From Escherichia phage Pinarejo: a stretch of 64,000 nucleotides of DNA. This document shows, piece after piece, positions 41,423-44,329 of this stretch (positions are counted from its first letter, which is position 1; the number at the start of each line of letters is the position of its first letter). Under the pieces are notes generated by a model, which was not told the origin of the DNA, ran no database searches, and saw nothing but the letters and a program-made list of their open reading frames with translations. Made by a program: the position numbers and the translations under genes. The stretch is from sequence record PP925831.1, one strand, 5' to 3'.

Positions 41423-41893
41423 TTAATCATGTGTCCACACCCCATCGGTATTTGACCAAAGTCGCTGATTATCTGATCCTCGCCACAGCTTTTTGGTCGG
41501 AAGATTTTTCTCATACTTCCCATCAATAATAACATCAACATATTTAAGCATTTCTAGTTGTTTAATATCTTCAAACTTATATCCTGTCCACAACCAAATG
41601 TCTTTCTCAGGAAATCTTGCTTTAACCCAAGAAACTAAATTTGAAATCTCTTCTCGGTTCTGTGGATAAAGTGGGTCACCACCGGTTAAGGTAAGGCCTT
41701 GGATATACGATTTGCTTAAATGGGACGCAAGTTCTTTAACGGTATTCATAGTGAATAACTGTCCGTTACGAGCATTCCAAGTACTACGATTATAACAACC
41801 TTCGCATTTATGCAAACATCCAGTGACGAAGAGAACGACCCTACATCCAGGGCCGTTAACGAAATCGCATGGATAAATTCTATCATAATTCAT
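41423..41893 (-). CDS. nrdG: anaerobic ribonucleotide reductase activating protein (radical SAM)
   Basis: CxxxCxxC-type cluster (GCLHKCEGC); start set to MNYDRIY (156 aa). Confidence 0.85.
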   Translation of the reverse strand: MNYDRIYPCDFVNGPGCRVVLFVTGCLHKCEGCYNRSTWNARNGQLFTMNTVKELASHLSKSYIQGLTLTGGDPLYPQNREEISNLVSWVKARFPEKDIWLWTGYKFEDIKQLEMLKYVDVIIDGKYEKNLPTKKLWRGSDNQRLWSNTDGVWTHD

Positions 41894-42515
41894 CTTTATA
41901 TTTCCAAGTATATCCCTTATGAATAGATTGAATTCCTTTGCAACATTTATAAACAGCAGAATGAAAAAATCCTGCATTTCTTATTTCAGTTGCTCCAGTT
42001 AGTTCTATTGTATTTCCGTCTGGTGAATAGCCAATAACCGTTTTGGTGTTAAAGCGATTTCTAGAACTATTTTTGATATGCTCTTTATGACTAGTAGACA
42101 AAGTTCTTCCTGTTAGCCCATCAGATATCCTTTTTCCAAAATCATCAGGAAGAGTTACTTTAGACCTAGCTATGCTCATTAGCTTCTTAGTTTTATCGCT
42201 TCTTTTTGCGCCACGCTGATTTTCAAATTTCTTAGCTTTTGCATACGCGTATTGTGAAGAAGTAACTTTTCTATGCTTACTATTACTCATTATCCAATAT
42301 GCATCATACATCTTTCCACCATATATTTTAGCCAATAAATGGTGAGCAGTATAGTGGGCCTTATAAGTTAAAAATACTAAGTTGTCTAAATCATCTGAAC
42401 CACCCATACTTCTTGGAATTATATGATGAAGTTCATACCCGGCTTTAGTTTGACGGGGCTTAGATGGGTGTTCAGCAGAATTAACTAGATTTGAATAGAT
42501 TCTGTCATAATTCAT
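41883..42515 (-). CDS. HNH homing endonuclease (Mob-like)
   Basis: 210 aa; HNH motif ELHHIIPRSMGGSDDLDNLVFLTYKAHYTAHH; wedged between nrdD and nrdG. Confidence 0.75.
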   Translation of the reverse strand: MNYDRIYSNLVNSAEHPSKPRQTKAGYELHHIIPRSMGGSDDLDNLVFLTYKAHYTAHHLLAKIYGGKMYDAYWIMSNSKHRKVTSSQYAYAKAKKFENQRGAKRSDKTKKLMSIARSKVTLPDDFGKRISDGLTGRTLSTSHKEHIKNSSRNRFNTKTVIGYSPDGNTIELTGATEIRNAGFFHSAVYKCCKGIQSIHKGYTWKYKDEL

Positions 42516-44329
42516 TGGTGTTTAACCCTATGCATGATTTCTTTATTTTTACCGAGATTAAATCCGCGTTCGTTCGGGTTTCCCAAATAACCGCATGTTC
42601 TTCTTATTGTGTTCATCTTTTTAGGATCAGTTTCTCCACAAATAGAACAAACAAACCCGTTTTCAGTAGGAGTCATTTCATGGGTACTTCCACACGTAAA
42701 ACATTTATCTACTGGCATGTTAACACCAAAATAATCTAAATGTTGTGCAGCATAATCCCATACAGCCTCAAGACCCTTTAGGTTATTTTTCATATCAGGA
42801 AGTTCAACATAAGAAATGTGACCACCTGTCGCAATGAAATGATATGGGGCTTCACGAGAAATCTTTTCAAACGGAGTAATATTTTCTTCTACTGAGACAT
42901 GGAAACTGTTAGTGTACCAGCCTTTATCGGTAACATCTTTTACGCTTCCATATTTTTCTGTATCGAGTTTACAGAAGCGATAACAAAGGTTTTCAGCAGG
43001 AGTCGAATATAAACTAAAAGCAAATCCGGTTCTTTCAGTCCACTGTTTAAGACGAGCATTCATTTTAGTTAAAATTTCCTGTCCAATATCACGACCGACA
43101 AGAATATTCAATTCGTGAATACCAATGTATCCTAAAGACACTGAACTTCTACCATTTTTAAATAACTCAATTATATCGTCATCAGGTTTAAGACGAACCC
43201 CGAATGCACCTTCTTGGTAAAGAATAGGAGCAACAGTCGCTTTAACTCCTTTTAAGGAACTAATTCTACACATCAAAGCTTCAAAACATAAATCCATTCG
43301 CTCATTGAATAATTTAACAAATTTCTGTTCATTGAACTGTGTTCCAATATAAGAATCCAACGCAATACGAGGAAGATTCAGTGTTACAACACCAAGATTA
43401 TTACGTCCATCAAGAATTTCATTACCGGTTGAATCTTTCCACGCGCTCAAGAAACTGCGGCAACCCATTGGAGAAACAGGAATAGATGAGCCAGTGATAG
43501 CTTTATTGTTCTTAGCTGAAATAATATCAGGATACATCCTTTTGCTTGCACACTCTAGAGCAAGCTGCTTAATATCATAGTTCGGATCGTCTTTATAAAG
43601 ATTAACACCTTCTTCAACGAACATAACAAGCTTAGGGAAAATAGGAGTTATCCCATCACGACCGAGACCTTTAATACGATTTTTCAGAATTGCTTTCTGA
43701 ATCATTCGTTCAGTCCAGTCAGTTCCTGTACCAAATGTAATTGTTACAAAAGGAGTCTGTCCGTTTGAACTAAAGAGAGTATTTACTTCATATTCATAAG
43801 CTTGGAATGCATCGTATACATCTTTTTCTGTTTTAGATTGAGCATAATTTAACGCATCAGCGATTTTCCATTTTTCTGCATCCTCAATATGTTTTGCATA
43901 GGTGCGTTTAACATAAGGAGAAAGTACTTTATCTACATTCGCAAAAGTCGTTCCGCCGTATTGGTGAGAAGCAACTTGCGCAGTAATTTGTGCCATAATT
44001 GCAGTAGCAACTCCAATTGATTTAGGAGTTTCAATCTGTGCATTACCAAGCTTAAATCCGTTTTCAAGCATTCCTTTTAAATCTACTAAACAACAATTAG
44101 TAAATGGAAGAGCAGGGGAATAATCAATATCATGGAAATGAATAATTCCGCTTTCATGCGCTTTCATAATAAAAGACGGGACCATATTTTTGGCAATGTG
44201 TTTAGACACAATACCAGCCATAAGGTCCCGTTGAGTTGGAAAAACACGAGAATCTTTATTAGCATTCTCGTTTAAAAGGTCTTTATTAGTTTTATGAATC
44301 AATCCTTCAATTTCTTTTTCAATTGTCAT
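42512..44329 (-). CDS. nrdD: anaerobic ribonucleoside-triphosphate reductase
   Basis: 605 aa continuous ORF; C-terminal Zn ribbon and glycyl-radical region; no intron. Confidence 0.95.
   Translation of the reverse strand: MTIEKEIEGLIHKTNKDLLNENANKDSRVFPTQRDLMAGIVSKHIAKNMVPSFIMKAHESGIIHFHDIDYSPALPFTNCCLVDLKGMLENGFKLGNAQIETPKSIGVATAIMAQITAQVASHQYGGTTFANVDKVLSPYVKRTYAKHIEDAEKWKIADALNYAQSKTEKDVYDAFQAYEYEVNTLFSSNGQTPFVTITFGTGTDWTERMIQKAILKNRIKGLGRDGITPIFPKLVMFVEEGVNLYKDDPNYDIKQLALECASKRMYPDIISAKNNKAITGSSIPVSPMGCRSFLSAWKDSTGNEILDGRNNLGVVTLNLPRIALDSYIGTQFNEQKFVKLFNERMDLCFEALMCRISSLKGVKATVAPILYQEGAFGVRLKPDDDIIELFKNGRSSVSLGYIGIHELNILVGRDIGQEILTKMNARLKQWTERTGFAFSLYSTPAENLCYRFCKLDTEKYGSVKDVTDKGWYTNSFHVSVEENITPFEKISREAPYHFIATGGHISYVELPDMKNNLKGLEAVWDYAAQHLDYFGVNMPVDKCFTCGSTHEMTPTENGFVCSICGETDPKKMNTIRRTCGYLGNPNERGFNLGKNKEIMHRVKHQ

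Follow-up and report, generated by a model that had tools for sequence, protein, structure and literature searches.

The mobC homing-endonuclease gene at the nrdD/nrdG junction of Escherichia phage Pinarejo and a shared gene start as its probable recombination joint

The DNA analyzed here, referred to as the window, is a 64,000-nt stretch of Escherichia phage Pinarejo (PP925831.1), in which a free-standing HNH homing-endonuclease gene of the Mob family, mobC (41883..42515, 210 aa), lies between nrdD, encoding the anaerobic ribonucleotide reductase (42512..44329, 605 aa; PF13597, E = 1.2e-171), and nrdG, encoding the radical-SAM activase (41423..41893, 156 aa; Pfam Fer4_12, E = 2e-50). All three genes, and the features within them described below, are on the minus strand. 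As an initial annotation of this DNA had it, the 210-aa HNH reading frame is located exactly at the nrdD/nrdG junction, and its ATG (42515-42513) overlaps the nrdD stop codon (TGA, 42514-42512) in the sequence ATGA (42512..42515). Two of the positions given there need correction: the boundary at 42535 is 20 nt past the ATG at 42515, and the mobC stop codon does not precede the nrdG ATG by 5 nt but falls within nrdG (TGA at 41885-41883, inside codons 3-4), the two genes overlapping by 11 nt (41883..41893, ATGAATTATGA) with mobC ending in D E L stop. The insertion has moved the nrdG start 622 nt downstream. The first 23 nt of mobC (42493..42515, ATGAATTATGACAGAATCTATTC), here termed the left repeat, match the first 23 nt of nrdG (41871..41893, ATGAATTATGATAGAATTTATCC), the right repeat, at 20 positions, and both proteins begin MNYDRIY, as previously noted. 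We propose that this shared stretch probably served as a recombination joint when mobC, a Mob-family HNH homing gene, moved between phages, and we regard this reading as clearly the best supported of those considered below.

Searched against the Mob families, the HNH protein is identified by its similarity as MobC of phage T4 (ORF 55.10; NP_049689), an already known element. The two proteins are 99.5% identical over residues 1-210 and the two genes are identical in 632 of 633 nt, and the T4 annotation places its gene at the same nrdD/nrdG position with identical 4-nt and 11-nt overlaps. The whole locus is 100% identical at the nucleotide level to that of phage Elenatom, as is the mobC gene to that of phage 215Ecol030PP. 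The protein scores 26.9 bits against Pfam HNH (PF01844; cut-off 21.4) and matches PHROG 655, ‘homing endonuclease’, with E = 3.9e-43. Its HNH core (residues ~28-58, ELHHIIPRSMGGSDDLDNLVFLTYKAHYTAH) aligns position by position with HNH domains of solved structure; H30/H31, N45, H54, and H58 are conserved, and the motif is intact and not degenerate. The C-terminal region (residues 145-209) matches PHROG 20162 and, weakly, the C-terminus of I-HmuI (E = 0.34), and no Pfam DNA-binding domain was found at E ≤ 0.01. A local tblastn search of MobC against the window matched only mobC itself, revealing no other Mob paralogue, and a scan of IMG/VR with MobC gave one distant match and no useful extra copies. 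The gene is sporadically distributed, being present in about 31 of 833 records that carry the nrdD/nrdG locus, and in these about 31 records the reading frame is intact and at least 99% identical.

The mobC gene is outside any intron or intein, both flanking genes being complete open reading frames (ORFs), and a scan of positions 41000-45000 with Rfam (E ≤ 0.1) found no group I or other intron and no other RNA family, from which we conclude that mobC is free-standing. The T4 and window genes are in essence the same, in position and overlaps, with no functional difference in mobC itself. The two phages do differ in nrdD, which the T4 annotation gives as a two-piece join around the group I intron that encodes I-TevII, whereas in the window nrdD is uninterrupted; this is a T4-like phage (Tequatrovirus) without the nrdD intron that nevertheless keeps mobC.

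The resemblance between the two gene starts must be judged against the Mob family itself. A degenerate 23-mer representing the repeat occurs only twice in the window, at the mobC and nrdG starts, where shuffled sequences gave an expectation of zero. An exhaustive search of 158 Mob-family representatives, from which the following N-terminal statistics are taken (a word-indexed protein search had given only 12 relatives), yields the consensus M-N-Y-x-[KR]-I-Y, with N (86) or D (24) at position 2, Y at position 3, K (49) or R (36, of 114) at position 5, I (72) at position 6, and Y (110) at position 7. The commonest heptapeptide is MNYQRIY, and six of the seven residues of MNYDRIY in MobC conform to the consensus; the D at position 4 is unusual (2 of 114). 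MobD of T4, at an unrelated locus, starts MNYTKVY, and a metagenomic family member, P0069, located between the baseplate genes gp5 and gp6, starts with exactly MNYDRIY. At the nucleotide level, the first 21 nt of mobC match unrelated Mob genes (T4 mobD, the MobC-like genes of KP27 and leB, and P0069) at 15-17 positions, nrdG alleles at 17-19, and the nrdG of the window at 19. The 20/23 match is above chance compared with random sequence and only marginally above the family background, since the Mob-family N-terminus itself has this form. From the window alone, therefore, the MNYDRIY resemblance cannot count as the footprint of an insertion, as it had been read. The family comparison shows instead where most of the similarity comes from: the N-termini of the Mob family (MNYx[KR]IY) and of NrdG (MNYDR[IF]Y) are alike independently, and this provides some 20 nt of near-homology exactly at the element's left boundary.

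What the resemblance alone does not provide comes from phages that lack the gene. In the insert-free phages T2 and Pu-Krd-SF4 the nrdG ATG is part of an ATGA that overlaps the nrdD stop codon (caATGAattatgatagattttatcc), at the exact position of the mobC ATG in the window, and a synthetic sequence from which the segment between the repeats is precisely deleted aligns with insert-free phages over 800 of 800 nt without a gap. The empty site at nrdD/nrdG is thus precise and corresponds to a deletion between the two repeats, and the alignment with T-even relatives leaves standing the overlap of nrdD stop and nrdG start on which the notion of an insertion had depended. The left repeat is exchangeable with the resident nrdG start. 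Because its ATG occupies the position of the nrdG ATG, overlapping the nrdD stop as ATGA, mobC takes over the translation start context of nrdG.

The evidence that the shared stretch has been used as a crossover site is provided by Klebsiella phages of the genus Jiaodavirus, in which nrdG is preceded by a small ORF and not directly by nrdD. In the insert-free members JD18 and KEN25 (KEN25_2) nrdG starts with ATGAATTTCGACAGAATCTAcc (MNFDRIYPSDF), the start segment expected in insert-free members being ATGAATTTC. Phages Boboto and Wolf_ER13 carry mobC, and their gene is identical to that of T4 in 631 of 633 nt, the sole differences, at nt 8-9, being those of codon 3 of Jiaodavirus nrdG. It starts with ATGAATTTCGACAGAATCTAtt (MNFDRIYSNLV), and the left-repeat segment in these carriers, ATGAATTTCGACAGAATCTA, is identical to the Jiaodavirus nrdG start, where a start of the donor type would read ATGAATTAT. 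Upstream of the ATG the flank is identical to that of JD18 and has no similarity to T4 nrdD. Since the two genera share no homology upstream of the ATG, the left crossover is bound to lie inside the first ~20 nt, within the 11 nt GACAGAATCTA. Downstream, nt 1-110 of nrdG are of the T4 type (99-100%) and the remainder is of the JD18 type (97-98%), and the right repeat in both phages is identical to that of the window and replaces the resident MNF-type start. A left crossover at GACAGAATCTA makes the left repeat the nrdG start of the recipient and the right repeat that of the donor. The Jiaodavirus carriers thus have the arrangement of homology on one flank, with the right crossover ~110 nt into the homologous nrdG, and a junction at microhomology on the other. 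The same assignment, left copy from the recipient allele and right copy from the donor allele, is found in both genera and for both of the endonuclease genes described here, which is why we interpret the repeats as a recombination junction and not as a target-site duplication. Allele comparison of this kind shows that the shared stretch has been used as a crossover site, although MNYDRIY by itself is mostly family consensus.

The nrdG gene of the window, like nrdG in the mobC-carrying Tequatroviruses generally, is a mosaic; it has three parts, as seen from its segment identities and mismatch profile. The first part, nt 1-110 (41893-41784), is an allele linked to mobC, in which nt 1-20, the start repeat, are 95% identical to T2, 80% to JD18, and 100% to Boboto, and nt 20-110, found only together with mobC in both genera, are 81%, 78%, and 99% identical, respectively. 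The second part, nt 110-300 (41783-41594), is Jiaodavirus-like (56% to T2, 93% to JD18, 91% to Boboto), and overall this patch has only 56-60% identity to insert-free Tequatrovirus nrdG; residues 44-100 of the T4-type NrdG are identical to those of JD18 NrdG. The third part, nt 300-471 (41593-41423), is of the Tequatrovirus type (99% to T2, 73% to JD18, 73% to Boboto), and around the patch the 3' ends of nrdG and of nrdD are both about 98-99% Tequatrovirus-type. Some 110 nt of the nrdG 5' allele therefore travel with mobC in two genera, as expected of co-conversion of a flanking marker.

A second HNH gene, encoding 278-279 aa, occupies the same nrdD/nrdG slot in phages of the Paracelsus type, overlapping nrdD as ATGA and nrdG by 11 nt just as mobC does. 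Its start is host-specific. In the Tequatrovirus Paracelsus it reads MNYDRFYPCDFVN running into DKLS and matches the start of insert-free Tequatrovirus nrdG at 39 of 40 nt, and in the Jiaodaviruses SmallBear and Roth04 it reads MNFDRIYPSDFVN running into DKLS and matches Jiaodavirus nrdG at 40 of 40 nt, with one fusion point common to both genera. The nrdG stub is not native to this gene, since its nearest paralogue, beside gene 46 in SHFML-11, starts VKNFKLDINDEF. When IMG/VR was scanned at the peptide level for the second HNH protein, the matches were ordinary nrdG genes, 100% identical to its residues 1-13, and there were no useful extra copies. Translation might alternatively start at a GTG that lies in frame at codon 12. 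On these junctions the second HNH gene provides an independent replicate of the capture of an nrdG start.

The slot has also been occupied in other ways. In 215Ecol030PP (PP328843; 540-620 and 1224-1270 of the compared stretch) mobC is located behind a segH-type nrdD 3' end (...aaacATGCATAGGgttaaacaccaATG), is separated from it by a 12-nt spacer and lacks the ATGA overlap, the gene being intact and the junction lying at the shared ATGCATAGG; from ~nt 17, nrdG is the ‘PCC’ allele MNYDRIYPCCFVNGPG, which elsewhere accompanies the second HNH gene. The arrangement indicates a swapping of cassettes at short shared sequences, and it looks like mobC was swapped into a genome that previously had segH or the second HNH gene. 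The Slopekviruses were considered as a third replicate of the chimeric start and rejected, the MobC-like gene of KP27 keeping its native MNYQKIY. In Earwig_ER32 (PP738774; 363-423 of the compared stretch), an apparently insert-free Slopekvirus, nrdG is immediately preceded by the last ~60 nt of a KP27-type MobC-like gene, joined to the small ORF before them, and the site is a deletion remnant marking the loss of an endonuclease gene. KP15 (375-922 of the compared stretch) has an unrelated 175-aa ORF at the position of the KP27 MobC-like gene (KP27 3139-3160 compared). Between KP15 and KP27 the first 21 nt of nrdG have 7 differences (ATGAATTACGACCGCATCTAT vs ATGAATTATATTAGAATTTAT) and the following sequence is nearly identical; the difference may be a target-site or immunity polymorphism.

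We now put forward a hypothetical mechanism, under which the events at this locus would best be understood as one-sided homing in nature, with one junction at microhomology. MobC would cut or nick the nrdG region of an insert-free genome, and repair would copy from a co-infecting mobC+ genome by synthesis-dependent strand annealing, with full homology available in nrdG. For the opposite junction two routes can be envisaged. Within a genus, the 3' end of nrdD would serve as the left homology arm. Between genera, where the recipient genome has no homology upstream, the recipient 3' end, terminating in its own nrdG start, would prime on the near-identical start of mobC, amounting to one-sided homing with illegitimate double-strand-break repair. 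The comparisons themselves show that, on entry into a genome of this latter kind, the left crossover lies within the shared start stretch, the recipient nrdG start becomes the first codons of mobC, and the right crossover lies 17-300 nt inside nrdG. The mobile unit is thus the body of mobC together with a substitute 5' end for nrdG, and its point of insertion is effectively about nt 20 of nrdG.

Placed in this position, mobC would inherit the translational coupling of nrdG to nrdD. We infer such inherited coupling because no Shine-Dalgarno sequence is found upstream of the mobC ATG; the gene has neither a promoter nor a ribosome-binding site of its own. Translation of nrdG would probably be by re-initiation after termination of mobC. 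A scan of 41700-42800 for promoters and terminators found nothing above shuffle expectation and did not confirm the embedded promoters mentioned in PMC2988022. A terminator-like hairpin (GCAGGATTTTTTCATTCTGC, with a T-rich tail; 41956-41975) is present on the minus strand in the 3' end of mobC, ~65 nt upstream of the nrdG ATG, the number of such hairpins not being above shuffle expectation.

Several points weigh against the proposal that mobC moves by homing through a recombination joint. In Table 1 of a 2010 review of T4 mobile elements (PMC2988022) mobC is listed as a free-standing HNH gene at the nrdG/nrdD site with activity ‘ND’ and target ‘unknown’, and no DNA cleavage has ever been reported for MobC, so that homing initiated by MobC itself is the conjectural part of the scheme. 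The first seven codons of the T4-type mobC need not have come from nrdG, P0069 having MNYDRIY without nrdG nearby, and the nucleotide identity between mobC and nrdG is just 2-4 positions above the family background. The native MNYQKIY of KP27 means that chimerism is not obligatory. The transfer between Tequatrovirus and Jiaodavirus may have run in either direction, and the mobC-carrying Jiaodaviruses examined (2/3) may derive from a single event.

The rival explanation that survives best, and one we nonetheless consider unlikely, is that mobC has lost the ability to cleave DNA and is a passenger, passive or defunct, carried by the general recombination of T4 or by trans-homing of neighboring endonucleases (I-TevII in the nrdD intron, or SegH). 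This would account for the lack of any reported MobC activity, and it has a precedent in the mobilization of the defunct I-TevIII by mobE (Wilson & Edgell, 2009, as cited in PMC2988022); moreover, segH and the second HNH gene use the same slot and cassettes are swapped there, as in 215Ecol030PP. On the other hand, mobC is intact and at least 99% identical in ~31 records, its catalytic residues are conserved, and the window retains mobC with neither the nrdD intron nor I-TevII. The very recent transfer between genera with a short adjacent co-conversion tract (~110 nt) also fits a nearby break made by the element itself.

Less probable still is a single ancestral insertion that duplicated the nrdG start in the manner of a target-site duplication, both copies coming from one target and being kept for the expression of nrdG, which is close to what had been proposed from the window alone. 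The direct repeats do flank the element exactly, precise excision does restore the insert-free junction, and the second HNH gene does carry a 40-nt duplication of the nrdG 5' end. We reject target-site duplication, and with it the idea that insertion copied the start so as to keep nrdG expressed. For either genus and either endonuclease gene, the left copy has the allele of the recipient (MNF in Jiaodavirus) and the right copy that of the donor (MNY, T4-type). Of the seven residues that the two starts share, six belong to the Mob-family consensus, and mobC in 215Ecol030PP is still intact with a 12-nt spacer in place of the ATGA overlap. Homing by double-strand-break repair is not known to generate target-site duplications. 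Pure coincidence, in which both families happen to begin MNY..[IF]Y and mobC merely occupies an intergenic slot, the similarity having no part in insertion or mobility, has in its favor the family consensus, the occurrence of the motif at loci other than nrdG, or with codons unlike those of nrdG, in T4 MobD (MNYTKVY), KP27 (MNYQKIY), and P0069 (MNYDRIY), and a nucleotide background of 15-17/21 against the 19/21 observed, but as an account of the role in mobility it is largely refuted and correspondingly improbable, given that the only two differences of Boboto and Wolf_ER13 mobC from T4 mobC are those of Jiaodavirus nrdG codon 3, that a JD18-identical flank devoid of T4 nrdD homology requires a crossover within the first 20 nt, and that the host-specific 40-nt nrdG stub of the second HNH gene is unmistakable.

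The proposed recombination joint can be compared with known systems. One-sided homing with microhomology junctions has been shown by experiment for the T4 td intron (Parker, Belisle, & Belfort, 1999, Genetics 153:1513, as summarized in PMC2988022). Going by that summary, both cases have extensive homology on one side, here in nrdG, and a short microhomology at the other junction, here 11 nt in the case of mobC (GACAGAATCTA) and about 10 nt in that of the second HNH gene (TTTGTGAATG). They differ in that the td events, as summarized there, were engineered plasmid-phage crosses with an intron-encoded enzyme, whereas those considered here are natural events between genera that involve free-standing genes, and in that the microhomology here is located in the start codons of the endonuclease gene itself. 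In phages of the RB3 type the GIY-YIG gene segH replaces mobC (Sandegren, Nord, & Sjoberg, 2005, NAR 33:6203, as cited in PMC2988022). The nrdD/nrdG slot is the same and start and stop codons again overlap, showing that different endonuclease genes exchange at one locus, but segH belongs to another nuclease family and is confined to the space between the genes, overlapping nrdD by 8 nt and meeting nrdG in an ATGA; nor does its N-terminus derive from nrdG. Mob-family genes are also found within coding sequences whose host gene is kept functional, as with Aeh1 mobE, which splits nrdA, and the T4 mobA/gene 60 element, both cases of genes-in-pieces (Friedrich et al., 2007; bioRxiv 10.1101/2022.08.31.505936). 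In those cases the host gene yields two polypeptides or the ribosome bypasses the insertion, whereas at nrdG just the initial 20-40 nt are detached, the cassette brings a complete new 5' end, and NrdG stays a single polypeptide.

Taken in this context, the finding refines known homing biology and does not amount to a new type of system. As an element, mobC is textbook material for T4, and the comparative result is of modest value to the homing-endonuclease field; the interpretation first drawn from the window is partly supported, for reasons visible only in the comparative data. Three features may be new: an N-terminus derived from the recipient, a substitute 5' end, and one-sided homing as a natural event. 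We offer examples of such homing across genera in nature, in which two different HNH genes gain the start codons of the recipient gene, and T4 nrdG is revealed as a three-part mosaic imported with mobC. The search for the MobC target is narrowed to the first ~20-110 nt of nrdG, and the activity of MobC becomes directly testable. More tentatively, and as a generalization about which we have real reservations, the HNH genes of the nrdG locus could be viewed as a ‘5'-end replacement cassette’ that inserts within the first 20-40 nt of an essential-pathway gene, takes the start codon, initiation context, and first codons of the recipient as its own N-terminus, and carries a substitute 5' end for the host gene. 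Such a cassette could spread between genera on one-sided homology and would make translation of nrdG depend on the endonuclease ORF. No prior description of it was found in the accessible literature, from which the primary 2005 paper on the locus (Sandegren et al.) is excepted.

Some further observations concern gene calls and the neighborhood of the locus. The ORF list of the window contains an artefactual extension of nrdG (41423..41977) that begins at an in-frame ATG inside mobC, and in the public record of Wolf_ER13 nrdG is called from the same kind of upstream in-frame ATG within mobC (184 aa; 1441-1995 of the compared stretch), an annotation error. In the T2 record AP018813 (701-1171 of the compared stretch) nrdG is mislabelled ‘tail sheath monomer’. 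Upstream of nrdD in the window, the end of a homologue of gene 49 (endonuclease VII; 44326-44799, minus strand) overlaps the nrdD start by 4 nt, and 49-nrdD-mobC-nrdG form a continuous chain of overlapping stop and start codons.

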